Source: Escherichia phage Ec_Makalu_001
Sequence record: MN894885.1
Strand: one strand, 5' to 3'
Length of the DNA stretch: 64,000 nucleotides
The notes under the pieces were generated by a model. It did not search any database. It was not told where the DNA came from and saw only the letters and a list, made by a program, of their open reading frames with translations. How positions within the stretch are numbered: the stretch's first letter is position 1; each line of letters starts with the position of its first letter. This document shows positions 15,972-63,491 of the stretch, one piece after another. Position numbers and translations under genes: made by a program.

Positions 15972-16792
15972 TTAGTCACCTCACCGAAAATTGTAAATTG
16001 TCTACGATTCTCATCGCCGAAAGATTCTACTACGTCGTTTACCTTGATGCAAGTCCCGCGCGGTAAAATTACTTCACATTCGCAAGGATTCCATGCAATA
16101 GACCCAACAACAAAACCTTTATGATCTTTTACGTCAATTACCCATGATACATTACAAGAATGTTGCATCTTTCCGGTCATTGATTCATATCGATTCTCAC
16201 AATAAAGGCTAGTGCTGTTTGAAAGCCATCCTCCAAAGATGATCGGTGTCATGCTGGTCGATACAAAGTTTTTAAAGGTAAATTCCTTATCTTCAATAAT
16301 ACGCTCTATTGTCTGAATGTCAAGATGTTGACCGCGATAAAGAGTACCGTTTAACTTTTCGGTTTTATCCATGACACAATCCATCAAATCGACAATCTCT
16401 GATATCTCATCGGTCATGTCTTCTTCCCCTAAGAGAGCACCATTTACCCATTCGTATTGTTCAGACACATAATCGCAGATTGCATTATATTCTGCTGGGG
16501 TTATGTTGTTATGTTTGTAATGTTTGAATACATTATCTCCAAAATCTTCGGAATGTACTTCATACATCACATTAATGATTTTCTTGACAAATCCATAATC
16601 TTGCGTTTCTCGCTCAAGGAAACGGATAACTTTCACGTAATCATCAAAGTTAATATGATCGCTGATCATTTCAGTGATCATGTAACCATTAATCCCCTCA
16701 ATGCCATATGTTTCGATGTAATTATCCATACGTTCCATCATTGATTCGCGTGATTCTTCTGAAAGGCGAAAATCCTGTAATTTCTTGAACAT
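15968..16792 (-). CDS. ADP-ribosyltransferase, Alt/Mod-like paralogue
   Basis: 274 aa; ART catalytic signature: YRG (Arg), FVSTS (STS motif), ECEVILPRG (ExE) in correct order. Confidence 0.6.
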   Translation of the reverse strand: MFKKLQDFRLSEESRESMMERMDNYIETYGIEGINGYMITEMISDHINFDDYVKVIRFLERETQDYGFVKKIINVMYEVHSEDFGDNVFKHYKHNNITPAEYNAICDYVSEQYEWVNGALLGEEDMTDEISEIVDLMDCVMDKTEKLNGTLYRGQHLDIQTIERIIEDKEFTFKNFVSTSMTPIIFGGWLSNSTSLYCENRYESMTGKMQHSCNVSWVIDVKDHKGFVVGSIAWNPCECEVILPRGTCIKVNDVVESFGDENRRQFTIFGEVTK

Positions 16793-16871: not shown

Positions 16872-18923
16872 TTACATTTTAAATTTATCCGGCATAGCGT
16901 CTACAGACACAAGATCAGCGATAAGCTGACGTAGAGTTGCCTTATCTGCTTTCTTACGTTCGGTTTTAGCTTCGGTAATGAAGCTGGAGAAAGACAGGTC
17001 AGAAGCAGGTTTAACAACACCTTCACGGATGAATGCATCACCGTCCGCGATCATCTCACCAGATTCTTGTAATGCTGCCAGTTCATTTTTGTTCATAATA
17101 TGTGCCTCGATGTAATAAGTTTCTTGTGAATCCGTCGATGCCGTAGCACGAGTTACCGTATCAAAGGATAACACAACACCGCGAGGAAGTAAAATCTCGC
17201 ATTCTTTGTAAGCAAATGCTTTGTTACCTACTGGCAATACAGGGATGTTTTCCGCGCCAGCAATGGAGAAAGCAACATTAGCGCCACCTTCACCGCGAGA
17301 TCCAGCCATAGAATCAACACCAGCAACGGCACTAGCCACGTTTGCATTCCATCCACCAAAAATATTAGGTGCAAGGGAAGTGCTCACATAGTTTTTAAAG
17401 TAAAACGCTTTTTGCTTACGTGCAGTTTCCCACATTTGAGAACGGAAGTCCATACCACGATACAAGATAGTACCTGGATCAAGTTTAACACCATAGTTAG
17501 CAAATGCGTTATCCAGTGCATCACACATCTTGACCAATTCTTCTGGGTCTGCGATGCCTTCAAACTCTTCCAGCTTACGGTCGGTTAGGAAGTTGTTCAT
17601 ATTGATGTATGCTGCATCCGCATATTCGCTCAACACAAAACCTTCCGCGCCAGGCAGATCAAGATCAATATCTGCCATCATTTCACCCATGTTGCTAGCA
17701 ATTGCTTCAAACATACCGGAAGCAACATTACGCAGGGCATCGGTTTTAATCTGCGTGATGTGACTACGCAGCATTTCAGCTTTTACATCTGCTGGCATAG
17801 ACTGGTCGACGCGATCCATTGCTAGGGCGGTGATCTTGTTTTCAAACACTTCTTCATTCATGATTTCTTTTAAGCGTTTGATTGATGCTGCGATAACTTC
17901 CGCAGACAACGGATCATATTGATCCTGAACTTTTACCAGTTCGCTTACTGCGTATTTTGCATCGGCTTCGCTTTCAAAAATAGTACGCATGAAACCATAG
18001 CGAGTGATAATATCACTTGTCCAGTCATTCAGAGAACGGGCGGTTGAACGTTCTAAGGCTTGACGGTCAATCAGAGTATTAAACTGTTTCTTAGGTTCTG
18101 CTTCGGTGATATCTTCTTCCGGTTTAAGATTAATTTTTTCTGGATGATTCACATAGTCGCTGTTATAGGTCGCTTGAGTTTTCAGCATTTCTTCTTTAGT
18201 CAAACGAGATTTAGCCGCTACGCGTTGTTCTGCTTCCGCGTTTCGTTCTTCTTCTGACACAAGACTAGCCGCATACGCCTCATCTTTAGTCAGAGATTCA
18301 CCAGTAGCCTTAGATACCCAGCGATCACCTAAATCACTTTCTACTTTAGTGAACAGGGATTCATCGAGTTTAATCCCTTTAATCTTATCAATCGCCATCC
18401 CGCGACGTTTGACAACAACTAAAGCGATCTTTTTGCTGGTCATTACTTCCTGCTGGAATACTTCAAACTTCGGTGTACGACGCACCAAACGCTCTATAAC
18501 GCGCTTAACCAGTTCGGTCTTACCTTTCATGCGGGATACGTTAAAACGGAACATAACAGCGTCTAATTGCGCTTTACGGGCTGTTTCCATAACCACATCA
18601 AAAGCACTTGACATAACTGCAATTGGGTTATCTCCTAGACCATTTTTAAGCTGTACAATACGACCGCTTTTGTTCATTTCGCACAGTACAACATGTGCGG
18701 TCTTGTCACCCATACGAATGATTTTAGGTGTTTTGTTGGTGAAGTTACAAAGACGGACAATCACATCTTTATCGCGTGTCTGTACTGCAAAAAGCTGTTT
18801 AGGATTCTGCTTAGGCTTTAAGCACTGTACCGGAGCAATACTGCCAAAGTTTTCTTCCTCTTCCGTCAACAGCCATTTCTCGAAAGATTCAATCATTAGA
18901 TCGTCGATTTCTAAGTTAAACAT
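16872..18923 (-). CDS. alt: Alt ADP-ribosyltransferase (head-packaged)
   Basis: 683 aa (T4 Alt is 682 aa); C-terminal ART signature ILYRG, YVSTS, ECEILLPRG; synteny after gene 54. Confidence 0.75.
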   Translation of the reverse strand: MFNLEIDDLMIESFEKWLLTEEEENFGSIAPVQCLKPKQNPKQLFAVQTRDKDVIVRLCNFTNKTPKIIRMGDKTAHVVLCEMNKSGRIVQLKNGLGDNPIAVMSSAFDVVMETARKAQLDAVMFRFNVSRMKGKTELVKRVIERLVRRTPKFEVFQQEVMTSKKIALVVVKRRGMAIDKIKGIKLDESLFTKVESDLGDRWVSKATGESLTKDEAYAASLVSEEERNAEAEQRVAAKSRLTKEEMLKTQATYNSDYVNHPEKINLKPEEDITEAEPKKQFNTLIDRQALERSTARSLNDWTSDIITRYGFMRTIFESEADAKYAVSELVKVQDQYDPLSAEVIAASIKRLKEIMNEEVFENKITALAMDRVDQSMPADVKAEMLRSHITQIKTDALRNVASGMFEAIASNMGEMMADIDLDLPGAEGFVLSEYADAAYINMNNFLTDRKLEEFEGIADPEELVKMCDALDNAFANYGVKLDPGTILYRGMDFRSQMWETARKQKAFYFKNYVSTSLAPNIFGGWNANVASAVAGVDSMAGSRGEGGANVAFSIAGAENIPVLPVGNKAFAYKECEILLPRGVVLSFDTVTRATASTDSQETYYIEAHIMNKNELAALQESGEMIADGDAFIREGVVKPASDLSFSSFITEAKTERKKADKATLRQLIADLVSVDAMPDKFKM

Positions 18924-19239: not shown

Positions 19240-19268
19240 ATTATGATATACACCCTCTGTTATGTCAA
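19240..19268 (-). promoter_or_regulatory. Sigma70-like early promoter (PeSL-type cassette)
   Basis: Minus strand: TTGACA, 17-bp spacer, CATAAT; conserved leader with GGAG RBS follows. Confidence 0.55.
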
Positions 19269-19274
19269 CAACTT

Positions 19275-19453
19275 TTAGAACATTTTTGAAATTAATTCTG
19301 CTTTGATTTCGCAGAGAACATCTAAAGATTTCTCGTCACCCGCTTTTGCTGCTTCTGCTTGCATTTTTGAAATGGCTTCAATGTCAGTGCAATTATAAGC
19401 CGCTTGAACTTTAGCGATTGCGATGATTGCCGATTCGATGGTTAAGTGTTTCA
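19275..19453 (-). CDS. Small protein (58 aa), not in supplied ORF track
   Basis: Own translation MKHLTIESAIIAIAKVQAAYNCTDIEA...; preceded by cassette promoter and GGAGAATCAAAC leader. Confidence 0.4.
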
Positions 19454-19486
19454 TGTTTGATTCTCCTTTCGTTTCGGTATGTGTGC

Positions 19487-19515
19487 AGTACAGGGGATCG
19501 CCGATCCCCTGTCAA
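19487..19515 (-). promoter_or_regulatory. Sigma70-like early promoter with palindromic GATC-containing spacer
   Basis: Minus strand: TTGACA, spacer GGGGATCGGCGATCCCC (17 bp, inverted repeat, two GATC), -10-like hexamer. Confidence 0.5.
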
Positions 19516-19522
19516 CAACTTT

Positions 19523-20041
19523 TTAGTTATTTTTTAATTGCTCATCTTGCAATAGGGCAATCACATGCTGGCGATGTTCTTCCGATTGAGGAACACCGAA
19601 AAAGTTTGTTTTGTAGAAATACTCTAATCGGTCTTCTCGTGTGCTCTCTTCCATCATGATCGCGGGTAGTCCGAGATTTCGGAAACGTCGCTTTTCTGCT
19701 GGCGTAAAATCACTGTAATACAACATAGAATCATCATTACCAGCAATGCTAAACTCATCCTTCATAAAGGAGAATATTGCGTTTAAACGCTGTTTACCGT
19801 CCACGATTTCGATCTCATAGCGAGAGCCATCATCAATCTTAGCCATTGCGATAGCACCAACCGGAAAATCATTAATCAGGTTTTCGATAAACATACGTTT
19901 GTTTTCGGTGTCCCATACCAAAGGACGCTGATAATCTGGGTTCATGTTGATATAGCCATCTTCTAACCACGCCTCATAAACAGAGATGACAAAGTTTTTA
20001 GTATTGGTATAGTAACGGCGTTTAGGCGTTAAACGGTTCAT
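19523..20041 (-). CDS. DUF262 / ParB-like nuclease-domain protein
   Basis: About 172 aa from the internal ATG at 20041 (GGAG RBS; the longer track ORF to 20077 would overlap the upstream gene); motifs DYQRPLVWD and VDGKQRL match the DGQQR signature of the DUF262 ParB/Srx-fold domain; last gene of a coupled 5-gene operon. Confidence 0.5.
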   Translation of the reverse strand: MNRLTPKRRYYTNTKNFVISVYEAWLEDGYINMNPDYQRPLVWDTENKRMFIENLINDFPVGAIAMAKIDDGSRYEIEIVDGKQRLNAIFSFMKDEFSIAGNDDSMLYYSDFTPAEKRRFRNLGLPAIMMEESTREDRLEYFYKTNFFGVPQSEEHRQHVIALLQDEQLKNN

Positions 20042-20042
20042 G

Positions 20043-20375
20043 TTATAGTCTCCTGAATGGATCATCACGTAAATCAATATCTTTTAAGAACTCATCCCAT
20101 GAATGGCGGATATTGTTCTTAATTCTCCAGATAAGCGCAGGGATTGAACGCTCTCCCATCTGGAAGTAAGGATCATATGATCCATATGCCCAATATGCTA
20201 CTACAATTCCACAATCGGCGCAATAATATTCTATTTCACTTGCTGGCGACCAAAGTCCATCAATATGATCACGGATCTTGCTTTCGATGTTATGGCTATG
20301 GCAATCAGGGCAACGGATGCAATGACCTTGTTTATCGTAATTTGACGTTAGCGAATACTTAAACAATCTCATCAT
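20043..20375 (-). CDS. Zinc-ribbon protein
   Basis: 110 aa; CIRCPDCHSH and YYCADCG Cys clusters; ATGA overlap with upstream gene. Confidence 0.45.
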   Translation of the reverse strand: MMRLFKYSLTSNYDKQGHCIRCPDCHSHNIESKIRDHIDGLWSPASEIEYYCADCGIVVAYWAYGSYDPYFQMGERSIPALIWRIKNNIRHSWDEFLKDIDLRDDPFRRL

Positions 20376-21088
20376 AGATCCTTATTGGCTTCAAATACTG
20401 CCTTTGCGAATCCTCGCGGGGTAAGTGACCTGATAGTCTTTGTTCTGGTTCCTTTCCCGCCTAGCTTAGAATGCTGTTTACTGTACCCTTTATTAATCTG
20501 CAACGGTTTCTTTTCTGGCATTATAAAGCCTTGTCCGGTCCATAAGCAAGTCTTTTTCGGGTACATATCACGGGCGGCAATATACTCAGGAAACGTAGGA
20601 TGCTTATCATCTTCCGGCAAATAACCGCCATATTCCCACGGATGGAACATGTAATCAGGCTTACGCCACATGCTAGAGATAACGCTTACAGGATTCTCTA
20701 TCATGTAGGGAACTCCTAGCCATTCACCCAAATAAGCGGTTATTTTAGCTGCCCTTACATCATGAACTTGAATTAATGGTCCTTGTTCTCGTTTCTTTCG
20801 TTCAAAGTGCGCAGCGCCACTAACAGCTAAATTGGTGCATGGTGGGAATGCAAAGATAATATCCGGTTTCCCCCATTCAAGGTCCATTGCTCTTTCCAGC
20901 CAATTTAAATCAATCCATGTGTTTACATATGTAATGTTTGGATGTTCAAATCGGGTATTATATTTTTTGTATGTACCGTGGTCGCCATCGTCAGCATTAA
21001 AGCAGATCACCTTATGACCTGCTTTAGCCCATTCTAACCCCATTATCCCCGATCCGTCAAAGTTGCAGAATATTAATTTTTGTTTCAT
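20372..21088 (-). CDS. C5-cytosine methyltransferase-like protein (compact; PPC catalytic motif)
   Basis: 238 aa; motif I-like FCNFDGSGIMG (FxGxG), motif IV-like FAFPPCT (PC catalytic Cys), motif VI-like IENPV (ENV); no obvious target-recognition domain. Confidence 0.4.
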   Translation of the reverse strand: MKQKLIFCNFDGSGIMGLEWAKAGHKVICFNADDGDHGTYKKYNTRFEHPNITYVNTWIDLNWLERAMDLEWGKPDIIFAFPPCTNLAVSGAAHFERKKREQGPLIQVHDVRAAKITAYLGEWLGVPYMIENPVSVISSMWRKPDYMFHPWEYGGYLPEDDKHPTFPEYIAARDMYPKKTCLWTGQGFIMPEKKPLQINKGYSKQHSKLGGKGTRTKTIRSLTPRGFAKAVFEANKDL

Positions 21089-21330
21089 ATACGCCCCTTT
21101 AACCCAACACAGATTTTAGAAGGTTCTTTGCCGTGCCACATTAAGTAAATTCCGTTAATGCGTCCTTGTTTTGTATATGATTCTTTTCTGATCTTCTTAT
21201 AGTGTCGTGCTTCCTCAGCCGATTGTTTAGAATGTCGATCATAAAGGAAGAGGAACAAAGGCCAACCATTAGCGGCCTTAATGCAGTTATTCAAAAATTC
21301 CTTATTTCGTTTAATTAATTTTCTTTTCAC
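21085..21330 (-). CDS. Hypothetical protein (81 aa)
   Basis: ORF translationally coupled on both sides (ATGA overlaps). Confidence 0.4.
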   Translation of the reverse strand: MKRKLIKRNKEFLNNCIKAANGWPLFLFLYDRHSKQSAEEARHYKKIRKESYTKQGRINGIYLMWHGKEPSKICVGLKGRI

Positions 21331-21578
21331 GCTGCCCCCATTGGTTTGATAGTAACAGAATCTAAAAGACCTTTGTTAGCCAGTTCGCGGCAAGTTTTCA
21401 GATCCGCAACTTCCCAGCCAGCCGCAATAAGGTTATCAATGAGGCTGTTAGCAACTTCTTCGCTCATGAAAGAGCACTGTTTGCCGATGGTGTAGCGTAC
21501 ACGCTGTAATTTCAGTTTACGGAAGCCTTTAACGTTCAGGTCTTTAGCGATTTTCTTTGCGGTTTCGATGTTAGCCAT
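21327..21578 (-). CDS. Hypothetical protein (83 aa), first gene of the operon
   Basis: ORF with GGAGAATCAAAC leader and cassette promoter upstream. Confidence 0.45.
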   Translation of the reverse strand: MANIETAKKIAKDLNVKGFRKLKLQRVRYTIGKQCSFMSEEVANSLIDNLIAAGWEVADLKTCRELANKGLLDSVTIKPMGAA

Positions 21579-21618
21579 TGTTTGATTCTCCTAAGTGGTA
21601 TCTCGTCTTGATGGTTGT

Positions 21619-21647
21619 ATTGTAGGGGAGTTATCCTCCCCTGTCAA
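21619..21647 (-). promoter_or_regulatory. Sigma70-like early promoter with palindromic spacer (operon 21578->19523)
   Basis: Minus strand: TTGACA, spacer GGGGAGGATAACTCCCC (17 bp), TACAAT. Confidence 0.5.
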
Positions 21648-21661
21648 CACTTTTTATAAAA

Positions 21662-21829
21662 TTATTTGTTAATTTCTGGTGCGTTGCTAGGATAGTAACC
21701 TTCTTTAACTCCGAGGTATTTCGCAACCATCCCTACAATCTTCTGTGCTACTACAATGTCAAATTTCAGATAATCTTCGCCGTGGGTTTCAATGATATAT
21801 GCTTCACATGCTGCTTTAGTCTCGAACAT
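21662..21829 (-). CDS. Small protein (55 aa), paralogue of 24945..25112; not in supplied ORF track
   Basis: Own translation MFETKAACEAYIIETHGEDYLKFDIVVAQK...; nucleotide sequence ~85% identical to the 24945-25112 copy; cassette promoter upstream. Confidence 0.5.
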   Translation of the reverse strand: MFETKAACEAYIIETHGEDYLKFDIVVAQKIVGMVAKYLGVKEGYYPSNAPEINK

Positions 21830-21862
21830 TTTGATTCTCCTATTTCGTTTCGGTATGTGTGT

Positions 21863-21891
21863 ATTATAGGGGATCTCCCGATCCCCGTCAA
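21863..21891 (-). promoter_or_regulatory. Sigma70-like early promoter with palindromic GATC-containing spacer
   Basis: Minus strand: TTGACG, spacer GGGATCGGGAGATCCCC, TATAAT. Confidence 0.55.
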
Positions 21892-21905
21892 CAACTTTTT
21901 TAAAA

Positions 21906-22187
21906 TTATTCGTGATTAGTTTCGATATTGTGCATTTTGCACCAGTTCAGCCAATCGCCAAGATCTTGATAGTTGATGCTTTTATCTGCTGCCATCGTTT
22001 TTGTCTTGATACCCATATGTGCGTTATGAGTAAGCATTTTTACAGTGAACTCAATTTTATCGCCTTTAGCTTTAACATCAACCAGTTTGGTCCACTGGCT
22101 ACCAGCACCGCGAATGTTCATACCAACGATGTTTCCGATGTATGCTTCTTTGTTGTTCAGGATTTCGGTTGCTTTGATGAATTTCAT
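21906..22187 (-). CDS. Hypothetical protein (93 aa)
   Basis: ORF with cassette promoter and leader. Confidence 0.45.
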   Translation of the reverse strand: MKFIKATEILNNKEAYIGNIVGMNIRGAGSQWTKLVDVKAKGDKIEFTVKMLTHNAHMGIKTKTMAADKSINYQDLGDWLNWCKMHNIETNHE

Positions 22188-22220
22188 TTTTGATTCTCCA
22201 GTTCGTTTCGGTATGGGTGT

Positions 22221-22249
22221 ATTATGCTATGTTCTTACTTTGGTGTCAA
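22221..22249 (-). promoter_or_regulatory. Sigma70-like early promoter (cassette)
   Basis: Minus strand: TTGACA, 17 bp, CATAAT. Confidence 0.5.
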
Positions 22250-22257
22250 CAACTTTT

Positions 22258-22527
22258 TTAGATATTTTCAGAAATAAATTTTAAAACTTGACGTAAATGT
22301 TTCTCATCTTTGATAGTCGCCGGAAGTTCTTCTTTTACTTCCTGTGCAAGATAGATATTTCCGTTCCAAGTGAAAGACCCGTCTTCGTTTACGCGATAGC
22401 TGAACATCCATTCGCAATCATTTTCGATTTCATATACACACAGAAGGGTGTAATCTTCAAAGCTATTGATTTCAAGGTCGAAGCCGTGGCGTTTTGCAAA
22501 GTTGGTAGTGGTTTTAGTCAGTGCCAT
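22258..22527 (-). CDS. Hypothetical protein (89 aa)
   Basis: ORF with cassette promoter and leader. Confidence 0.45.
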   Translation of the reverse strand: MALTKTTTNFAKRHGFDLEINSFEDYTLLCVYEIENDCEWMFSYRVNEDGSFTWNGNIYLAQEVKEELPATIKDEKHLRQVLKFISENI

Positions 22528-22567
22528 TGTTTGATTCTCCTAAGTGGTATCTCGTTTCGATGGGTGT

Positions 22568-22596
22568 ATTATGCTATAGGCGTGATCAGGTGTCAA
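22568..22596 (-). promoter_or_regulatory. Sigma70-like early promoter (cassette)
   Basis: Minus strand: TTGACA, 17 bp, CATAAT. Confidence 0.5.
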
Positions 22597-22621
22597 TGCC
22601 TTTTTTAAAATTTTATGCAAT

Positions 22622-22645
22622 AAAAAAGCCGACACTAAGGTCGGC
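22622..22645 (-). terminator. Rho-independent terminator (minus strand)
   Basis: Hairpin gccgacc-ttagt-gtcggc followed by UUUUUU on the minus strand. Confidence 0.55.
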
Positions 22646-22653
22646 TAATAAAA

Positions 22654-22962
22654 TCATTTAGGCAAATAATCATTCAGTGCAATCCGGTCGGCATGTTCCG
22701 GCGTTACATCAATCGCAATCACTTTAACGCGTGCTTTCTTGCGACCTGGGTTTTCTCGTAACCAGTGCTCATGACCGTGAACATTTTTATACTGCGATGC
22801 TTCTTCGAAGGTACGGATCGGACCAGGGTAATCAGCGTAAAGGATCTCTAGGTCATCGGTGATGTAAAAATATACGTTGTAATTACTGTTCTCTAGCTTA
22901 AGCAGAGACTTTCGGAACATTGGGAGATTTTCGCGGGTAAATTCAAAAGTAATATCTTTCAT
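22654..22962 (-). CDS. Paralogue family A member 1 (HxHW...AIDV motif protein)
   Basis: About 102 aa from the internal ATG at 22962 (GAGGA RBS); motifs YFYITDDLEILYADY, HGHEHW, KVIAIDV shared with five neighbouring ORFs. Confidence 0.5.
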   Translation of the reverse strand: MKDITFEFTRENLPMFRKSLLKLENSNYNVYFYITDDLEILYADYPGPIRTFEEASQYKNVHGHEHWLRENPGRKKARVKVIAIDVTPEHADRIALNDYLPK

Positions 22963-22986
22963 AGTATTATCCTCAATAGTTGGATG

Positions 22987-23006
22987 AAAAGGGGGCTTAA
23001 CGCCCC
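22987..23006 (-). terminator. Rho-independent terminator (minus strand), duplicate of the 18965-18985 hairpin
   Basis: Same ggggcgttaagcccc hairpin plus U-run. Confidence 0.45.
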
Positions 23007-23011
23007 ATATA

Positions 23012-23299
23012 TTAAAACAGTCCTTCCTGTACACCGTAGTAGAGTTCGTCGCTGATAATTTCATTAATGCGACGGTGTGCATATTCCTGATTTGCGAAGT
23101 TGTCAGCAAGTTCTACTTTAGTTTCACCGTCATGAGTCCATTTAGTGATAACTTTACCATCTGCAAATTTGAAGTTGAACTCTTTAGCTACTGCATCGCG
23201 TACCAGACGTGCGAACTTGTTGTTACGGATTGCATTATCGGTTTCGTGTGCAGCGTGAGCAAATTTGTTAACTTTCAGAGTGATAGTGATGTATGCCAT
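23012..23299 (-). CDS. Paralogue family B member 1
   Basis: 95 aa; region NAIRNNKFARLVRDAVAKEF shared with 26330..26641 (NAILIREVRKALAKEF). Confidence 0.45.
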   Translation of the reverse strand: MAYITITLKVNKFAHAAHETDNAIRNNKFARLVRDAVAKEFNFKFADGKVITKWTHDGETKVELADNFANQEYAHRRINEIISDELYYGVQEGLF

Positions 23300-23344
23300 A
23301 ATTTGATTCTCCTAGTTAGAAAGTGTATCTCGTTTCGATGGGTG

Positions 23345-23373
23345 TATTATGCTATACACCCGATCTTATGTCA
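23345..23373 (-). promoter_or_regulatory. Sigma70-like early promoter (cassette; palindrome GGGTGTAT/ATACACCC flanks -10)
   Basis: Minus strand: TTGACA, 17 bp, CATAAT. Confidence 0.5.
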
Positions 23374-23382
23374 ACACTTTTT

Positions 23383-23676
23383 TTATAAAATAATTTTTTG
23401 ATATTTTTCTATGATGTTTGTGTAATCCACATCAACCGCTATCACCGTTGCTTCGAATCCACCGTTTAGCCAATGGCTATGGTCATGATCGTGAAAGAAA
23501 CCAAGACCAGTACGAAGACCTTCTTTATATTCGGCGCGTACATTTAGATCATCATCGATAAACAGATAAAACCATGAATTTTTACTAGGATTGATGATAC
23601 AACCTTTCAGATTAGGGAGAATATCACGACTAAGAATAAACTTATCACCTACTTTGAACATAATATTAGTCCTCAC
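23383..23676 (-). CDS. Paralogue family A member 2
   Basis: 97 aa; FYLFIDDDLNVRAEY, HDHDHSHW, VIAVDV. Confidence 0.5.
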   Translation of the reverse strand: MRTNIMFKVGDKFILSRDILPNLKGCIINPSKNSWFYLFIDDDLNVRAEYKEGLRTGLGFFHDHDHSHWLNGGFEATVIAVDVDYTNIIEKYQKIIL

Positions 23677-23989
23677 TTATAAGGTCAAACCAATTGTTTT
23701 TCGCATAATGCTTAATGCGTGCTTGATCTGCTTCCGCTGGTGATAGATTCCATGCAACCACTACAACTTCTGACGCGTCGTCATCCGTTTCTGATACCCA
23801 ATGATTGTGATTCATACAGTTATTTGCGATCGAGTGAGCAAATGATTTCATCACTGGAGACGTATAATCATAGTAACGGATTTTCAGATTTTCATCAACA
23901 TACAAGTAGATCGTATAAGGTTTATATTCAGTAACCAGTAACAGACAGTTACGCAATTCTGGGAAAATCTTTTTAGTTAATTTCATTTT
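23666..23989 (-). CDS. Paralogue family A member 3
   Basis: About 107 aa from the internal ATG at 23989 (GAGGA RBS); YLYVDENLKIRYYDY, NHNHW, VVVVAWN. Confidence 0.45.
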   Translation of the reverse strand, partial: KMKLTKKIFPELRNCLLLVTEYKPYTIYLYVDENLKIRYYDYTSPVMKSFAHSIANNCMNHNHWVSETDDDASEVVVVAWNLSPAEADQARIKHYAKNNWFDLISED

Positions 23990-24206
23990 ATAATCCTCGG
24001 TCGCGGCTATAGTACACGGTACGCCATACAATTTCATGTTTCGTGTCGCTCCAGCACACGATCTCATTTACTCTTAAATCTTTGTTATCAACAAAAGATG
24101 AACATTGTGACGCTTCTTTCATCATTTTATCTGCTGTTTTCTCATCAAATACAGCACAGATTTCTTTATACACTCGATAATCTTTGAATTGACTCTGGAT
24201 ACCCAT
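23988..24206 (-). CDS. Paralogue family C member 2
   Basis: QSQFKDYRVYKEICAVFDEKTADKMMKEASQCSSF shared with 24166..24423; start uncertain (overlaps neighbour). Confidence 0.35.
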   Translation of the reverse strand: MGIQSQFKDYRVYKEICAVFDEKTADKMMKEASQCSSFVDNKDLRVNEIVCWSDTKHEIVWRTVYYSRDRGL

Positions 24207-24423
24207 AATTAACACCATTCCAACCAATTGTTTTTGAGAAAACGTTTATCCACTGTTGAGTGTAGCATGTTTCTTTCCATGATACAATACGAGTAGAATA
24301 ATGGTTTTTGTTTCCAGAAAAGGACGGGCATTTTGATGCATCTTCCATCATCTTTTCGGCGAACTCCGCGTCATATACCCGCAGGATCTGTTGATATGCT
24401 TTATAATCTTTAAATTTGCTCAT
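24166..24423 (-). CDS. Paralogue family C member 1
   Basis: 85 aa; SKFKDYKAYQQILRVYDAEFAEKMMEDASKCPSF. Confidence 0.4.
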   Translation of the reverse strand: MSKFKDYKAYQQILRVYDAEFAEKMMEDASKCPSFSGNKNHYSTRIVSWKETCYTQQWINVFSKTIGWNGVNYGYPESIQRLSSV

Positions 24424-24688
24424 AATTGTTAACTACCTTATCAGCTTCTTTTATTGTTTTTACATCAACTGCGATAATCCGTAAAGGTTCGTCGAAGGTC
24501 CACCAGTGGTCATGAATATCAGCTTGTGATTTATCACCAAAGGAATCACGAATATCATTTTTACATTTATAGCTAATATGGCCTTCATAGTCAACATAAA
24601 GGTAATTATCGAAAATCGGCGTTTTTAAGATCATACCGAAAAATCTTTCTTTGTGTGTCTTATCCAGTGTTGCAGTAATTCGCATCAT
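24410..24688 (-). CDS. Paralogue family A member 4
   Basis: 92 aa; YLYVDYEGHISY, HDHWW, IIAVDV. Confidence 0.5.
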   Translation of the reverse strand: MMRITATLDKTHKERFFGMILKTPIFDNYLYVDYEGHISYKCKNDIRDSFGDKSQADIHDHWWTFDEPLRIIAVDVKTIKEADKVVNNYEQI

Positions 24689-24700
24689 AATATATTCCTC

Positions 24701-24880
24701 TTAGAAAGGGATGGTCATTTCTTGAGCTTGTACATTCTCGTTAGGATTAAACTTCATCCAACCGATATTGTCTACCAGCATATGTACATTTTTATCATAT
24801 CCTACGTGAGTAGTCAACACTAAATGTGCTTTGCCTTCAACGATGATTTCCATGTACTTCTGAACTTCGATAGCTTTCAT
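24701..24880 (-). CDS. Small protein (59 aa), not in supplied ORF track
   Basis: Own translation MKAIEVQKYMEIIVEGKAHLVLTTHVGYDKNVHMLV...; GGAGAATCAAA leader and cassette promoter upstream. Confidence 0.4.
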   Translation of the reverse strand: MKAIEVQKYMEIIVEGKAHLVLTTHVGYDKNVHMLVDNIGWMKFNPNENVQAQEMTIPF

Positions 24881-24912
24881 TTTGATTCTCCGTTTGTTTT
24901 CTTGATGGGAGT

Positions 24913-24941
24913 ATCTTACTACTCCCTTTAATCATTGTCAA
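24913..24941 (-). promoter_or_regulatory. Sigma70-like early promoter (cassette; 20-bp palindrome GGGAGTAGTAAGATACTCCC spans -10)
   Basis: Minus strand: TTGACA, 17 bp, TAAGAT. Confidence 0.45.
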
Positions 24942-24944
24942 CTA

Positions 24945-25112
24945 TTATTTGTTAATTTCTGGTGCGTTGCTCGGATAGTAACCTTCTTTAACACCCAGAT
25001 ATTTTGCAACCATTCCGGTGATCTTCTGTGCTACTACGATATCGAATTTCAGGTAGTCTTCACCGTGGTTTGCTACAATGTATGCTTCGCATTCTGCTTT
25101 AGTCTCGAACAT
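24945..25112 (-). CDS. Small protein (55 aa), paralogue of 21662..21829
   Basis: Track ORF 24945..25178 trimmed to the ATG at 25112, which follows the cassette promoter and RBS; MFETKAECEAYIVANHGEDYLKFDIVVAQK... Confidence 0.5.
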   Translation of the reverse strand: MFETKAECEAYIVANHGEDYLKFDIVVAQKITGMVAKYLGVKEGYYPSNAPEINK

Positions 25113-25146
25113 TTTTGATTCTCCTATATCTCGTTGGTATGTGTGT

Positions 25147-25175
25147 AGTATAGGGGATCTGCGATCCCCTGTCAA
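25147..25175 (-). promoter_or_regulatory. Sigma70-like early promoter with palindromic GATC-containing spacer
   Basis: Minus strand: TTGACA, spacer GGGGATCGCAGATCCCC, TATACT. Confidence 0.55.
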
Positions 25176-25180
25176 CAACT

Positions 25181-25474
25181 TTATAATGCTTTATACGCGT
25201 ATTTCATAAATTTGTCTGCCACTTCATTGGCATGTTCAGATTCTACGCCTGATTCGAGAACAATAGCTAGGTCGGTTTCGTCATTCCCGCCGTACCAATG
25301 ATTTGATGTTCGATTTTTTTCAATTGGAAATTGGTCACTTTTATCTGTGCGACAAAATACATCTAAATGCTCGTCGATGTAAAAGATCCAATCTTCATAA
25401 AGAATAACGGTATTAGCAAGATTTTTATTGCCTTCAACGAAAGGTTCCGCGACAAATAGCTTAGTTTGTTCCAT
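25181..25474 (-). CDS. Paralogue family A member 5
   Basis: About 97 aa from the internal ATG at 25474 (GAGGA RBS); ILYEDWIFYIDEHLDVF, SNHWYGG, AIVLESG. Confidence 0.45.
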   Translation of the reverse strand: MEQTKLFVAEPFVEGNKNLANTVILYEDWIFYIDEHLDVFCRTDKSDQFPIEKNRTSNHWYGGNDETDLAIVLESGVESEHANEVADKFMKYAYKAL

Positions 25475-25490
25475 AGTAATTTCCTCAAAA

Positions 25491-25682
25491 TTATACAGTT
25501 TCGTAAACTTCCCAATGTTCAGCGCCAACACGCTTAACGAAAAGGTTTTCTTTGATGTTATTCATAAACGTCTGGATGGATTTAATGCGGTTTGAAGGTT
25601 TCCATTCTTCGTTGGCATTGCGTCGATACATCATAACATTACCAGTTCGCTTATATTCAGCAACCATTTTAAGACCACACAT
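25491..25682 (-). CDS. Hypothetical small basic protein (63 aa)
   Basis: ORF with GAGGA RBS. Confidence 0.4.
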   Translation of the reverse strand: MCGLKMVAEYKRTGNVMMYRRNANEEWKPSNRIKSIQTFMNNIKENLFVKRVGAEHWEVYETV

Positions 25683-25739
25683 AATATTATCCTCAATTTG
25701 TGGGAGAGTATTACCCCTCCCAATGATTGTTATGTTATA

Positions 25740-26060
25740 TCACACAAAATGGCGTGTCAATGCTTCTTTTGCGGTTCCGCTAAGACTTTCAATCTCGCCT
25801 GGCATAACATCAACCGCCAGAACTTCTACAACATCTTCGGACCCTAACCAGTGAGTATGGCCTTTGTAGAACTTGATAACCAGACCACCTTCCTCGTCCC
25901 ATTTAACGCTATCGCTAGCCCACCACACATCACCGTCGATAAAGTTGATGTAAAGCACACTACGCCACATTGAATTAATTACTTTCAATACTGCGCCTTT
26001 CATCTCTTCCACGGTATGGTCTTCCATTTTGAAGACCTCACCTACCTGAACTTTTGCCAT
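25740..26060 (-). CDS. Paralogue family A member 6
   Basis: 106 aa; LYINFIDGDVWW, KGHTHW, VLAVDV. Confidence 0.5.
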   Translation of the reverse strand: MAKVQVGEVFKMEDHTVEEMKGAVLKVINSMWRSVLYINFIDGDVWWASDSVKWDEEGGLVIKFYKGHTHWLGSEDVVEVLAVDVMPGEIESLSGTAKEALTRHFV

Positions 26061-26077
26061 TTAGTCACCTCTCTTTA

Positions 26078-26257
26078 TTACATAACAATCACGCCAGCCG
26101 TTGAAAGTTGATGTTTCAACTGAGCATTTTCTGCTACCGTCAAATCAATGATTTCTTGTGACGCTGCAATCATATATCCATTGGTGATATTGTTTTGCAT
26201 CAGTTCAATGGTCTCTTCGTTGTAGCGGATTTTAGCGATGATTTCGTTGAAGTTCAT
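26078..26257 (-). CDS. Small protein (59 aa), not in supplied ORF track
   Basis: Own translation MNFNEIIAKIRYNEETIELMQNNITNGYMIAASQ...; cassette promoter and GGAGAATCAAAC leader. Confidence 0.4.
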   Translation of the reverse strand: MNFNEIIAKIRYNEETIELMQNNITNGYMIAASQEIIDLTVAENAQLKHQLSTAGVIVM

Positions 26258-26291
26258 GTTTGATTCTCCTAGTTCGTTTCGGTATGTGTGT

Positions 26292-26321
26292 ATTATAGGG
26301 GAGTTTAACCTCCCCTGTCAA
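26292..26321 (-). promoter_or_regulatory. Sigma70-like early promoter with palindromic spacer
   Basis: Minus strand: TTGACA, spacer GGGGAGGTTAAACTCCCC (18 bp), TATAAT. Confidence 0.5.
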
Positions 26322-26329
26322 CAACTTTT

Positions 26330-26641
26330 TTAAAGTTTTTCCATGATAACGGTCATAATTACATCTTCTGCGCGAGCGGTCAGATTATCAGCGTCAGTAT
26401 GTGGGCGGTTGGTTGTTACAGAGATAACACCGTTGCGCACTGGTTTGATATTGATATCAAGATGATCCGCGAAACGTTCGCCAGTTACAGAATGAATTTT
26501 GGTGTTAAATTCTTTTGCCAGTGCCTTGCGAACTTCACGAATCAGGATAGCGTTTTTCAGTTGGTTCTCCGCGCTCATGGTCTTCTGAGTGTTCATGGTT
26601 CCGTCGAAGTCAATCATTGGCAGCGTTACGATGTATTTCAT
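26330..26641 (-). CDS. Paralogue family B member 2
   Basis: 103 aa; shares NAILIREVRKALAKEFN region with 23012..23299. Confidence 0.45.
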   Translation of the reverse strand: MKYIVTLPMIDFDGTMNTQKTMSAENQLKNAILIREVRKALAKEFNTKIHSVTGERFADHLDINIKPVRNGVISVTTNRPHTDADNLTARAEDVIMTVIMEKL

Positions 26642-26686
26642 TTTTGATTCTCCGTTTAAGAAAGTGTGTTTCGTTTTGATGTGTGT

Positions 26687-26715
26687 AGTATAGGGGATAC
26701 GTGATCCCCTGTCAA
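26687..26715 (-). promoter_or_regulatory. Sigma70-like early promoter with palindromic GATC-containing spacer
   Basis: Minus strand: TTGACA, spacer GGGGATCACGTATCCCC, TATACT. Confidence 0.55.
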
Positions 26716-26728
26716 CAACTTTTTTGAA

Positions 26729-27205
26729 TTATTTTTCTTGATGCTCGCGCTCGTACTTTTCGAAATAAAATTCTACTGGCTGGTCATGAATTGACAGCAA
26801 GCCAAAGCGTTTAGCCGCTCGCAATCCCATATTGCGCTGAATGTACTTCTGGAAGTTCTCGCGTATACACTTACGCCAGTATTCTAAGCCCATACAGCTT
26901 TTATAAAGATTGCATTGCACACACGCCGGATTCATGTTATCAAGTATATCATGCTCCGGTTTATGCATTCCTACAACCTTATACTTCCACGATCCATCAT
27001 CGTTACGGGCAATGCGACCATTTTCATCATAGACTACTTTTGAGCGTCGTAATACTGGTTTGATGTGGTCTGCGTGCCAGCGATCCCCTAGTTCCTCACC
27101 ACAATAGGCACAACGTCCACCGTATTTCATTTTCAGGATCTGGCGTTGCTCTTTCTTTGACAATTTTTTAGGTTTAGGGGCTTTCGCCCCTTCATTATCA
27201 CACAT
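26729..27205 (-). CDS. HNH endonuclease
   Basis: 158 aa; CAYCGEEL...HADHIKP...N...CVQCN fits the HNH zinc-finger nuclease signature; start overlaps the stop of the DNA ligase gene. Confidence 0.6.
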   Translation of the reverse strand: MCDNEGAKAPKPKKLSKKEQRQILKMKYGGRCAYCGEELGDRWHADHIKPVLRRSKVVYDENGRIARNDDGSWKYKVVGMHKPEHDILDNMNPACVQCNLYKSCMGLEYWRKCIRENFQKYIQRNMGLRAAKRFGLLSIHDQPVEFYFEKYEREHQEK

Positions 27206-28700
27206 CGAATACCTCTTTTACTGTATTTGCAGTGGTCTTGTCGTAGCGAATACGTTTGATGATTGGGAGAAATAAAGAGAACTCCGGTTCATCTTCTTTA
27301 CGTGATTTGCTGCGAATGTACCCGTTGCATGTCATCTCAATGACTTTTCCAATCAGGTTATGACGGTCAGCCCATAACATTTCTCGGTCGAGTTCATTTC
27401 GACGATCGAACGGAATTACACGTTCAATACCATCATCATCTTTTTCGGTTGTGGTGTCGGTCAATCCCGATCCGGTGTTAGTCGTCATTCGTCCGCACGC
27501 ACTACGGACAGTAAAACCGCCTACCTTGTTAGGATCTTTACTATGCGGATATACATCAACAATTTCCGCGTCGAAGTCAATCACTTCTTTAAATTTAACC
27601 TGATCTTTACTGCGACGATCTTCAAATACACCATGTAAATTTTTAAGGATAATACCTTCCAATCCCATGTTTACATAGCGATGATATACTTCGCGAGCTT
27701 CATCGATATTGTTAACTACAGTGTTTTCGATTATCTGAACACGAGGATCGTTAAGTTCTTCAACAATCTGTTTTAGTTCTTCGAATCGATCTTTATATTG
27801 CTTCGTTGCTTTCTCGTTTCCGTAATACACATCACGGTCGATAACATCCCAGACAGTGTAAACAATACATTGGGCTTCTTCTTTTGGAATAGTTCCTTTC
27901 AGTGATTTGTTGAGGATACCATTTCCGGTCTGACGGTCTGCAACAACGGATTCTTTCACTGCTTCCGCTACTGGCGTTAATGGCATTTCCTCTTCTTCAA
28001 ATATCCATGATAGAGTACCATCATAAACGCTCTCAACGAAGTTCTGCGCTGGTGTTTGAGAAAGGGTAGGCATATATACCAACTCACCATCTAAAACAAT
28101 TCCACGGCCTCGTAGACGCTCTAAAACAGCAAACAAATCATCCAGCCCCTGATAGGTATTACCTGAACGGGTATAGATTGCTAATGTTTCTCCGTCAATA
28201 TCAGCCATACCACGAGCGCCATCGCTTTTAAGTTGTGCATACGCCGGATATTTGATATTGGCAATAGTCTTATCAGAACATGACGATGCAAGGTGGCAAG
28301 GTTGCTGAGGAATCAGCTTCTTCCATACCTTGTTTGCGGTGGTAGCGGAACAACCGCATTCCAGATCACGATTCAGGACCATCATTGCAACTTTAGCATC
28401 ATCTTCTGACAAGCAAGTCAGAGTATCGGTAACTAGCTGTAATGCAGCATTACCAGTTACTTGACGCGTGGCAAGTTTATTTTTAAAGACCTGTAATGCA
28501 CCGGATAAAGACAATACAGACGAATAGCGAGACGGTTTATCGTATTTCTTTACGCCAAACGTAACCTGCTTGCAATATGCCAGATAAAAGCATTCTTTCA
28601 GCGTTTCATTGCTTGCAGATTCTTTCAGGATCTTTTCTTTCAGCGATGTTTTGTCAGTGGCTGCAAGCTGATTAATGATATTAAGAATTGACATTTTCAC
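27198..28700 (-). CDS. 30: ATP-dependent DNA ligase gp30
   Basis: 500 aa; adenylation motif KSDGARG (KxDG), IILKN, DAEIVDVYPHSKDPNKVGGF; close to remembered T4 ligase. Confidence 0.88.
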   Translation of the reverse strand: MKMSILNIINQLAATDKTSLKEKILKESASNETLKECFYLAYCKQVTFGVKKYDKPSRYSSVLSLSGALQVFKNKLATRQVTGNAALQLVTDTLTCLSEDDAKVAMMVLNRDLECGCSATTANKVWKKLIPQQPCHLASSCSDKTIANIKYPAYAQLKSDGARGMADIDGETLAIYTRSGNTYQGLDDLFAVLERLRGRGIVLDGELVYMPTLSQTPAQNFVESVYDGTLSWIFEEEEMPLTPVAEAVKESVVADRQTGNGILNKSLKGTIPKEEAQCIVYTVWDVIDRDVYYGNEKATKQYKDRFEELKQIVEELNDPRVQIIENTVVNNIDEAREVYHRYVNMGLEGIILKNLHGVFEDRRSKDQVKFKEVIDFDAEIVDVYPHSKDPNKVGGFTVRSACGRMTTNTGSGLTDTTTEKDDDGIERVIPFDRRNELDREMLWADRHNLIGKVIEMTCNGYIRSKSRKEDEPEFSLFLPIIKRIRYDKTTANTVKEVFDV

Positions 28701-30596: not shown

Positions 30597-30800
30597 TTAA
30601 CCGTATACGCGAAAGTATTCTACTGACCCGTCGCTATACTGTTTTACATTGAATGTATTCACACCATGATTATTTCTCATGATGACATATAAACTACGAC
30701 GTTCATCGCTAAACGGCATAACTGGTGCTGGTTCAATGTCAACATTAAAACCACGTTTAGCAAGTGCTTCGCCTAATTTCTTGATTTTATCGGTAAACAT
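30597..30800 (-). CDS. Hypothetical small protein (67 aa)
   Basis: ORF coupled between pseT and cd. Confidence 0.4.
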   Translation of the reverse strand: MFTDKIKKLGEALAKRGFNVDIEPAPVMPFSDERRSLYVIMRNNHGVNTFNVKQYSDGSVEYFRVYG

Positions 30801-34510: not shown

Positions 34511-34797
34511 CTTGATACTCCTTAGTTGTTTTGGGATGGGAGTATCTTACTACTCCCGTGATATGCTGTCAACTGCTTTTTTATGCAACCGCAAACATCA
34601 ACATTTGAACATTCTTGGCTGTCTGGCTTTCAAAGTTCTGACATTCTTTGATAATGTCCTCTACTTTCTCGCCGGAGATCTCCGCGTAAGTTTCGATTGC
34701 CATTTTCAGTACCGCGTCAAAGTTGTTCATTTGATTCTCCTTAAAGTGTATTTCGTTTCGATGGGGGTATATTACTACCCCCGTTTCATGCTGTCAA

Positions 34798-35016
34798 CTA
34801 CTTTTTAATGACAAGTTCGAATTTTGCTACCTTGCGTCCTCGTTTATTGAAAGCAACCCACGGACGGTTTTCAATGTAGAACAATTCTTCGCCAATAATG
34901 AATACTGGCTGATTGTAAAGGCGACCCATCAGGTCACGCTGGCGAATGGTATTAGATTCGTATACTTCGCCTACTACAAAGTGCTTGCTGATAGAGTCGG
35001 TGCAAGTAAATTTCAT
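34798..35016 (-). CDS. Paralogue family D member
   Basis: 72 aa; MKFTCTD...FVVGEVYE...VAKFELVIKK shared with 37394..37561 and 63252..63458. Confidence 0.45.
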   Translation of the reverse strand: MKFTCTDSISKHFVVGEVYESNTIRQRDLMGRLYNQPVFIIGEELFYIENRPWVAFNKRGRKVAKFELVIKK

Positions 35017-35085
35017 TTTGATTCTCCTTTGTTTCGTTTCGATGGGAGTATCTTACAACTCCCAATATTCAGTGTCAACTGCTTT

Positions 35086-37393: not shown

Positions 37394-37561
37394 TTATCCG
37401 ACAACCTCAAAACATTTATCATCAGGAAGAATAGCCCATTCTACGCCGTATTCATCCTTAACGTAGTAGCAAGTCCCATCATGTCGAGCATCATATTCAT
37501 CACCGACAACAAAGCTATCAGCTAGCTCAAAATCTACAGCAACACATTTTAATTTTGCCAT
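37394..37561 (-). CDS. Paralogue family D member (55 aa)
   Basis: Track ORF trimmed to the ATG at 37561, which follows promoter and RBS; MAKLKCVAVDFELADSFVVGDEYD... . Confidence 0.45.
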   Translation of the reverse strand: MAKLKCVAVDFELADSFVVGDEYDARHDGTCYYVKDEYGVEWAILPDDKCFEVVG

Positions 37562-37592
37562 AATAAAATCCTCATTTGTTTTTGATGGTTGC

Positions 37593-37621
37593 ATTATAGC
37601 GGGGATTTCTCCCCGCGTCAA
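37593..37621 (-). promoter_or_regulatory. Sigma70-like early promoter with palindromic spacer
   Basis: Minus strand: TTGACG, spacer CGGGGAGAAATCCCCGC (17 bp), TATAAT. Confidence 0.55.
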
Positions 37622-37629
37622 CACTTATT

Positions 37630-63188: not shown

Positions 63189-63251
63189 TGATTCTCCTTT
63201 TGTTTGGTGTGGGAGTATTTTACTACTCCCTTGTTCTGGTGTCAATAGACT

Positions 63252-63458
63252 TTATTTGATTATTTCAAATTTTGCTACCGGGTCGCCGTTTCTTTTGTTG
63301 GCAGTAAGTTGTTGCTTGTCAAAGTAAAACCAAATATAGTCACCATGAACTACATCAAATGTATTTCCGCTATTGTCCGTGAATACATCAACATCATAAT
63401 CACACCCGACACTAAAGCTATAATTGATGTGGTCGGTTTCAATGCAACGTACTTTCAT
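63252..63458 (-). CDS. Paralogue family D member (68 aa)
   Basis: MKVRCIETDHINYSFSVGCDYD...YIWFYFDK...VAKFEIIK; start at the ATG after promoter and RBS. Confidence 0.45.
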   Translation of the reverse strand: MKVRCIETDHINYSFSVGCDYDVDVFTDNSGNTFDVVHGDYIWFYFDKQQLTANKRNGDPVAKFEIIK

Positions 63459-63491
63459 TTTTTGATTCTCCTGTTGTTTCAGTTTGGGTGT

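Follow-up and report, generated by a model that had tools for sequence, protein, structure and literature searches.

Two 168-nt genes in the early region of Escherichia phage Ec_Makalu_001 (MN894885.1), here called A1 and A2, appear to be the products of an old duplication, and they lie in a locus where small genes seem to be shuffled as cassettes between copies of a repeated promoter and stem-loop element, the PeSL. We place the probability of this combined reading, an old A duplication together with PeSL cassette shuffling at an RB49-like hyperplastic locus, at about 0.8. The analysis covered a 64,000-nt stretch of the genome (the window). By nucleotide comparison the window is Krischvirus, that is, an RB49-like T4-type coliphage, all named relatives being of the same genus; nucleotide identity and synteny with RB49, phi1 and JSE confirmed this placement. 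Positions 20000-28000 gave 63 matches among phage records, 18 of them covering at least 80% of the query at 94-97% nucleotide identity, and Ec_Makalu_003 matched at 99.5% over 79% of the same interval.

The genes under study lie in the variable (hyperplastic) early region of Krischvirus. The minus strand carries all genes from about 19.5 to 47 kb, among them 17 small early open reading frames (ORFs) bounded by the DNA ligase/HNH genes on one side and the dcm/alt genes on the other, and gene order maps one to one onto RB49p189-p213 (RefSeq RB49 locus tags). From the HNH gene to the ORF190 homologue, 12 of the 17 ORFs fall into four paralogue families (A, B and C with two members each and E with six). 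Differences from RB49 were found at PeSL sites, where RB49 has ORF192, ORF195/196 and ORF211 and the window does not; conversely, the window carries one gene of a further family (D3) and two neighboring ORFs, all three of which RB49 lacks.

The A Gene Pair

A1 and A2 form a 172-nt direct repeat with 86% identity, its units 3283 nt apart, in which the likeness begins in the upstream promoter cassette and ends at the stop codon. At the ORF level 85.7% of the nucleotides agree, and the full 55-residue proteins have 91% of their amino acids in common (BLASTP E 3.6e-35; Smith-Waterman z = 52 against shuffles). Both proteins match phrog_8009 at 1e-38, and family A was upheld as a pair of paralogues. 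The original prediction had described the two genes as near-identical copies; the pair is real, but with 24 of the 168 bases differing that wording is too strong.

The same prediction took the duplication to be recent, which the synonymous sites contradict. Eighteen of the 24 differences are synonymous, over approximately 34 synonymous sites, giving a synonymous divergence (dS) of ~0.93 (0.93-1.02) and a nonsynonymous divergence (dN) of 0.047 (dN/dS 0.05), with the same result in RB49, ECD7 and the window. Orthologues of the A genes differ from one another by a dS of 0.06-0.29, so that the pair lacks the low synonymous divergence of a recent duplicate; its synonymous sites are near saturation. 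By nucleotide identity A1 and A2 are separate clades: A1 copies are 97-100% identical among themselves and A2 copies 94.6-100%, while A1 and A2 share 84.5-89.9%. Two copies are present in 51 of the 58 phage records that have the gene, a count that includes some phages twice, once from GenBank and once from RefSeq, and the remaining seven have a single copy, of either type. The two loci are the same in RB49, ECD7, the window and the 51 two-copy records, and at least one copy is kept in every matching Escherichia, Shigella, Enterobacteria or Krischvirus-named record.

Had one A gene been copied to the other site shortly before sampling, the 86% nucleotide and 91% amino acid identity and the sharp end of the likeness at the ORF boundary would follow naturally. 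The high dS and genus-wide presence nevertheless refute such a recent event, as do the shared loci, the equal divergence across these records and the separate clades, and we consider it scarcely tenable. Because of the dS, the separate clades and the shared loci, the duplication appears instead to predate the sampled genus, and the high DNA identity would reflect purifying selection on a very short gene rather than youth. High DNA identity in so short a gene can thus hide an old duplication. There are also signs of occasional short gene-conversion tracts between the copies: in phage Brandy, A2 is A1-type at six diagnostic sites in a row (positions 51-75), and the A copy of Cognac, A1-type over the rest of its ORF, turns A2-type at positions 114-141.

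Four of the five amino acid differences between A1 and A2 fall in residues 7-15, in predicted helix 1 (residues 5-16) of a two-helix hairpin model whose confidence is low (predicted local distance difference test, pLDDT, 62) and too weak for a fold search. This clustering, a dN/dS of 0.05 in both copies and a strong early promoter for each would be compatible with both genes being kept for function, either for dosage or for two specificities, the cassette context being incidental. Seven of the 58 records, however, have only a single copy, which may be of either type, and selection of this kind accounts for retention and not for origin. We regard it as a tentative possibility, one that does not conflict with an old duplication and cassette shuffling. 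The A proteins had no PDB or Pfam match, and a literature search by tag or accession returned no mention of RB49 ORF191 and ORF205, their RB49 orthologues.

PeSL Cassettes and Their Mobility

An element of 70-90 nt lies upstream of A1, A2, the family B and D genes B1, B2, D1, D2 and D3, and the homologues of ORF190, 193, 194, 204 and 209. Its parts follow a fixed order: an AT-rich tract, TTGAC(A/G), 17-18 nt, TAnnnT and a conserved leader (...CGAAACGA..GGAGAATCAAA-ATG) that ends in GGAGAATCAAA(A)ATG. The context AAAAAGTTGTTGAC precedes all seven of the A, B and D genes. When 19.0-27.5 kb were scanned for the consensus, near-consensus sigma-70 promoters (11 or more of the 12 positions matched) turned up nine times, in each case on the gene strand and ahead of an ORF. 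Spacer hairpins of -7.9 to -14.0 kcal/mol, typically GGGG..CCCC in form, occur upstream of A1, A2, B2, D2 and the ORF190 and ORF209 homologues, that of A1 being a GGGGATC..GATCCCC stem-loop of -12.8 kcal/mol, and B1, D1, D3 and the ORF204 homologue have a variant in which the hairpin spans the -10 region or is weaker. Promoter, stem-loop, intergenic position before ORFans and indel breakpoints inside the element all identify these sequences as PeSLs. None of the PeSL-flanked ORFs has a Pfam domain.

Each A, B and D gene forms a unit of its own between PeSLs. Repeat, motif and consensus scans agree with the earlier statement that each member of family D lies behind a cassette promoter, and the same holds for A1, A2, B1 and B2. 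No PeSL element was found upstream of C1, C2, E1-E6, F1 or F2 (families C, E and F), which lie inside operons. A family of near-identical terminator-like hairpins (AAAAAAGCCnnCCCGAAGGnnGGCT plus a T run) was also observed at 2222-2265, 3376-3419, 22606-22649, 44384-44427 and 63531-63568; several directly adjoin a PeSL promoter.

Comparison with relatives shows these units present or absent as wholes. From Brandy and JK32 precisely the A1 cassette (window 21830..21669) is missing, the flanks overlapping on a single PeSL, and so is precisely the B2 cassette, again with one PeSL at the junction; an IMG/VR contig has no B2 either. RB49 is without precisely the D3 cassette (window 63461..63219) and without the adjoining two-gene block, with one PeSL left, and MIZ4 lacks 2.6 kb (window 21829..19245) with PeSLs at both borders. 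At the A1, B2 and D3 sites, the ORF192 and ORF195/196 sites and the MIZ4 deletion, flank alignments overlap by 33-97 nt at a PeSL.

Experiments on related phages bear on the same genes. In RB49 and phi1, PeSLs are described as strong promoters of sigma-70-like type and their stem-loops as effective transcription terminators (PMC2839356), the methods including a terminator test of the PeSL211/210 stem-loop (PMC2839356), and the description was later extended to other T4-like phages (PMC4122927). Using inverse polymerase chain reaction and sequencing on RB49- and phi1-infected cells and virions, Arbiol et al. (2010; PMC2839356) found mini-circles of ORF191-194 and of ORF210, the latter as monomer (~400 bp) and dimer, with crossovers inside the flanking PeSLs; mini-circles were also reported inside virions (PMC2839356). 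ORF191 corresponds to A1 and ORF210 to B2, whose -35 to -35 distance of 394 nt matches the published ~400 bp band. The one-PeSL junctions of the indels and the published mini-circles together support the proposal that cassettes move gene modules around the genome.

Probable Exchange Between the A Copies

In FL04 and Cognac the A repeat itself appears to have served as the site of exchange. Each has one A copy, with the A2 neighborhood (E5) upstream and the A1 neighborhood (ORF190) downstream, and each lacks 3.3 kb with 11 ORFs plus one A repeat unit. The FL04 copy changes from A2-type to A1-type within the stem-loop of the PeSL, and its ORF is wholly A1-type (100%); the Cognac copy has an A2-type promoter and leader ahead of a mosaic ORF. 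Because the crossover positions differ, the two deletions were probably independent events, each made by A2 x A1 exchange. The FL04 copy is identical to A1 and not equidistant from both types, which indicates that the single-copy state is derived and not ancestral. These indels are not taken up in the paper that described Brandy and Cognac. If the deletions are as they appear, the 11 intervening genes are dispensable, and duplicated cassettes destabilize the region.

Table 1. Positions of the paralogous genes and of the PeSL elements bordering the A genes in the window.
Feature	Position	Strand	Description
A1	21662..21829	-	55-aa early gene; orthologue of RB49 ORF191 (RB49p191); phrog_8009
A2	24945..25112	-	55-aa early gene; orthologue of RB49 ORF205 (RB49p205)
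PeSL driving A1	21830..21898	-	TTGACG, 17-nt spacer, TATAAT, leader, GGAGAATCAAA-ATG
PeSL downstream of A1	21579..21661	-	drives ORF190 homologue; 3' boundary of A1 cassette
PeSL driving A2	25113..25182	-	83% identity to A1 PeSL, closest among the PeSL copies aligned to it
PeSL-type cassette downstream of A2	24881..24944	-	stem-loop around -10; drives 59-aa ORF204 homologue
Block between A genes	21830..24944	-	11 small ORFs and the PeSL upstream of A1
B1	23012..23299	-	95 aa; RB49p198; own cassette promoter at 23300-23384
B2	26330..26641	-	103 aa; RB49 ORF210 (p210); PeSLs at 26642-26725 and 26258-26329
C1	23988..24206	-	72 aa; RB49p201; no promoter of its own
C2	24166..24423	-	85 aa; RB49p202; in tandem with C1
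D1	34798..35016	-	72 aa; single-gene cassette between PeSLs 35013-35087 and 34732-34806
D2	37394..37561	-	55 aa; behind PeSL 37562-37641, between nrdA and nrdB
D3	63252..63458	-	68 aa; single-gene cassette between PeSLs 63458-63527 and 63180-63254
E1	22654..22962	-	RB49p197
E2	23383..23661	-	RB49p199
E3	23666..23986	-	RB49p200
E4	24410..24688	-	RB49p203
E5	25181..25474	-	RB49p206
E6	25740..26060	-	RB49p208
F1 and F2	37054-37221 and 37221-37394	-	tandem pair, 55 and 57 aa

Other Paralogue Families

The block between the A genes contains E1-E4, B1, C1, C2 and the homologues of ORF193, ORF194 and ORF204 (Table 1). More widely, the ORFs interleaved with A, B and C correspond to RB49 p193, p194, p197, p199, p200, p203, p204 and p206-p209.

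Family B had been listed as a set of paralogues, and it stands as a remote pair. BLASTP gave no alignment of B1 with B2. Their Smith-Waterman z of 6.0-6.1 lies above a noise ceiling of ~4, set by 465 pairwise comparisons of small variable-region ORFs, and in reciprocal hidden Markov model (HMM) searches of 434 window ORFs each was the other's best non-self match at E ~6e-4, the next ORF scoring 0.14-0.65. Both match phrog_7474 over their full length. An hhalign comparison gave 74% probability over a 26-residue core with 46% identity, and it is on this core that the signal rests. B1 and B2 are supported as a genuine but distant pair. A third B-like motif, in the PseT homologue (31371-31406), was taken as a chance match, the B1 HMM reaching it only at E 1.1.

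A segmental duplication of a whole B-E-...-A block was considered and rejected. In the window, B1 lies 1350 nt from A1 and B2 1385 nt from A2, with offsets between the pairs of 3283 nt (A) and 3330 nt (B). The corresponding distances in RB49 are 2515 and 1547 nt, owing to extra cassettes; the intervening ORFs have no pairwise similarity; and the A genes are far less diverged than the B genes.

The paralogy of family C is clear, as originally stated. C1 and C2 are tandem genes with a 41-nt overlap, share 43% amino acid identity over 61 residues (E 5e-15) and both match phrog_8471. A 5-nt insertion close to the end of C2 (24166-24227) sets the window and RB49 apart from MIZ4, JK32 and Brandy; it removes the stop codon and lengthens C2 from 69 to 85 aa, with overlap into C1. 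C1 has a 9-nt insertion after its start, and its alleles in the two phage groups are strongly diverged.

Family D, proposed as three paralogues, was reduced to two. D1 and D3 are probably related: they are 31% identical over their full length (pairwise E 4e-6; z = 9.2-9.6), with reciprocal full-length cross-matches to each other's PHROG at E 0.0033 and 0.056. D2 has no significant link to either. BLASTP gave E 0.14 or nothing, the z scores of 2.7 and 4.0 are within the noise of the 465 pairs, hhalign returned probabilities of 1-17%, and there was no common PHROG or Pfam match. In a search with a D1 plus D3 HMM, D2 was the top non-member match, at E = 1.1, and three short collinear motifs (MxK.KC; FVVGDEYD; CFEVV) are suggestive only. 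D2 was therefore dropped from family D after BLASTP, Smith-Waterman shuffles, HMMs (of D1 plus D3, and of the D3 family with Tunavirus and Webervirus homologues), hhalign, PHROG and Pfam had yielded nothing significant. Deep homologue searches for D2 and D3 returned near-identical Krischvirus proteins only and no useful profile.

Two further families were absent from the original prediction. The first, E1-E6, is interleaved with A, B and C, and its members align collinearly with an H-x-H-W motif, in which the H and W are invariant in 54 family sequences, and a V-I-A-V-D-V strand. Leave-one-out HMMs built from the other five groups recovered each member at E 2e-15 to 3e-5, with the best unrelated ORF at 0.2 or above. 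An AlphaFold2 model of E2 built with the 54 sequences (pLDDT 74; predicted template modeling score, pTM, 0.67) has four short strands, a long strand and two helices, and it matches other E paralogues in BFVD with template modeling (TM) scores of 0.6-0.7. The second family, F1 and F2, is a tandem pair with 38% identity (E 5e-13) and a common match to phrog_5579. These two proteins have a hydrophobic N-terminus (MATxWLL...), and their genes lie between nrdA and nrdB, immediately after D2.

We weighed whether the weaker families (B, D and E5) might be chance resemblances or reflect only a shared cassette, leader and start context. The lack of BLASTP matches for B1-B2 and D2, the D2 scores within the noise of 465 comparisons and the fact that the D3-family HMM finds D1 only at E 0.19 all lean that way. 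However, every comparison was made on proteins, with the cassette excluded, and the B scores (z = 6, HMM E ~6e-4, same PHROG), the full-length D1-D3 match at E 4e-6 with its PHROG cross-matches and the recovery of E5 at E 3e-5 by an HMM built without it (next ORF 0.4) make this explanation rather improbable.

Origin of the Copies

Under the reading we prefer, old duplication of A with PeSL cassette shuffling, the PeSL repeats (~70-90 nt) in front of many ORFs would offer short patches of homology to the phage homologous-recombination machinery. Each would bring an AT-rich tract, sigma-70 -35 and -10 sequences, a GC stem-loop that may also act as terminator, and a leader with a Shine-Dalgarno sequence. 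Exchange between two PeSLs would excise the intervening ORF or ORFs as a mini-circle or delete them, and the reverse reaction, or unequal exchange, could insert or duplicate a cassette at another PeSL. Such exchange would yield dispersed copies that keep their own promoter (A, B, D1/D3), and families without one (C, E2/E3, F) may have arisen by simple tandem duplication inside operons. Both the origin and the movement of the copies are inferred, resting on the published experiments at the orthologous locus.

Relatives beyond the genus raise the possibility of another source for the second copy. For family A, about four genuine clusters were found among 1.84 billion representatives, and relatives outside the genus occur in unrelated siphoviruses, Skatevirus SeSz-2 (70% amino acid identity) and Sashavirus (40%). 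D3 occurs in 13 Krischvirus records only and is absent from RB49, compared with about 56 records for D1; its nearest outside relatives are in T1-like siphoviruses (60% amino acid identity in Tunavirus Sfin/Shfl1, ~40% in Webervirus KP36), a distribution that suggests horizontal transfer of a small ORF across unrelated families of phages. One A gene may likewise have entered an ancestral Krischvirus as a PeSL cassette carrying a diverged allele, so that A1 and A2, and similarly D3 and D1, would be paralogues in appearance only. The outside relatives, the restricted range of D3 and the mini-circles reported inside virions would all fit. Against this, no A allele as close as 91% at the amino acid level was found outside Krischvirus, both copies have Krischvirus-type PeSLs and leaders, and the insertion step is the same as in a duplication within the genome, only the donor being different. 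We consider an outside donor unlikely. As outgroups for placing the root between A1 and A2, the SeSz-2 and Sasha proteins were uninformative, their diagnostic residues being mixed and common to both types.

Several points nevertheless weigh against old duplication with cassette shuffling as we have presented it. A2 need not be a copy of A1 made within the lineage; it could be an independently acquired diverged allele. PeSLs are alike genome-wide, so the 83% likeness of the two A-linked elements is no proof that they were duplicated jointly with the ORF. Mini-circle formation and promoter and terminator activity are all taken from the RB49 and phi1 experiments, and the FL04 and Cognac deletions are read from deposited assemblies. 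Finally, the role we propose for the proteins, presumably small early accessory factors for host takeover or counter-defence, draws only on early promoters, small size and variable presence, to which strong purifying selection is added, with no Pfam, PDB or convincing fold match.

Other Features of the Window

Some features beyond these families were recorded. A 172-aa protein encoded at 19523-20041 (minus strand) has a GmrSD_N domain (DUF262, ParB-like nuclease; E 4e-20). Its gene lies two genes downstream of one that relatives annotate as Dcm or C-5 cytosine methyltransferase (no Pfam match), with a zinc-ribbon ORF between them, and belongs to the block (19245-21829) absent from MIZ4. At the edge of the D3 hyperplastic region, the product of 60903-61661 (minus strand) is 252 aa long; its N-terminus resembles a signal peptide, and it has an LprI (lysozyme inhibitor) domain (E 9e-6).

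Other repeats and paralogues include a 77-nt direct repeat (1963-2039 and 2112-2188; 71% identity, 149 nt apart) with many TGATTAATAA and TTGATCATAATTTAATCA motifs, and two divergently oriented paralogues at 8658-9287 (minus) and 9358-10128 (plus), 24.5% identical (E 2e-12), that both match Pfam T4_baseplate. An Alt ADP-ribosyltransferase and a short paralogue are encoded at 15968-16792 and 16872-18923, and are present in RB49 according to Nolan et al. (2006). A stand-alone HAD/PNKP-type phosphatase (35405-35881) resembles the phosphatase domain of the PseT polynucleotide kinase gene (30800-31678). Four copies of a 44-nt in-frame repeat (GGTATTGCTGAAATTGCAACTCAGGAAGAAAC...) lie at 49917-50560 in a large plus-strand gene, where they probably give a fibre or structural protein a recurring peptide motif.

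Function and Comparison With Known Systems

The cassette and family proteins had no Pfam domain and no PDB sequence relative. Family E was compared with small proteins of phage counter-defence, Tad2 (DUF2829) and AcrIIA7, which it resembles in length (~90-100 aa), early expression and a small alpha/beta fold. Membership in the Tad2/DUF2829 group of anti-Thoeris sponges was not borne out: none of 54 members had a sequence match to DUF2829 or any other Pfam family, Foldseek found nothing in the PDB at E <= 0.001, and the weak BFVD matches to DUF2829 proteins (E 0.13-0.69) score at the level expected for unrelated small folds.

A bolder suggestion is that the 5 kb at 21.6-26.7 kb are a paralogue-rich counter-defence or host-takeover island, with E, A, B and C as diversified inhibitors of different host targets. 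We think this doubtful. Were it true, specificities would be generated or reassorted by promoter-carrying cassettes, in integron-like fashion without an integrase, and the A repeats would be handles with which the population switches the 11-gene block off (the FL04 and Cognac state) and on again.

For the most part the finding is ordinary: it recovers from raw sequence the PeSL system at the very locus of its first experimental demonstration, and the mechanism has been published for exactly ORF191 and ORF210. The understanding of T4-type genome plasticity is unchanged by it. What it adds is modest: how far paralogy extends, how old the A pair is and, in FL04 and Cognac, deletions running from one A copy to the other. 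With 12 of 17 ORFs in four paralogue families, cassette and tandem duplication, besides gain and loss, would shape the hyperplastic regions.

The closest known system is the set of PeSL cassettes in RB49 and phi1, which belong to the same genus and share with the window their genes, cassette anatomy, indel signature and crossovers inside the PeSL. Undescribed in the PeSL papers are the paralogue families A, B, C, E and F, as well as the use of a duplicated cassette plus ORF as a longer (~240 nt) substrate that removes 3.3 kb. Neither PMC2839356 nor its 2014 sequel (PMC4122927) uses the words "paralog" or gene "duplication," and alt-related duplications are the only ones that Nolan et al. (2006) mention for RB49.

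Integron cassettes are similar in their arrays of small ORFs, mostly of unknown function, in leaving as small circles and re-entering at a repeated boundary element, and in single-cassette presence/absence polymorphism. They differ in that no integrase or attC/attI sites are known in the PeSL system, where exchange is attributed to general homologous recombination at short repeats, and in that PeSL cassettes each carry a promoter and a terminator whereas integrons rely on one Pc promoter. The T4 hyperplastic deletions at short GGGC/GCCC repeats and the T-even internal-protein (IP) loci (PMC2839356) also involve the loss or exchange of small, non-essential early ORFs via short promoter or stem-loop elements that are repeated. 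Their elements have T4-type early promoters and weaker AT-rich stem-loops, and are analogues rather than homologues of the sigma-70-consensus PeSLs (PMC2839356).

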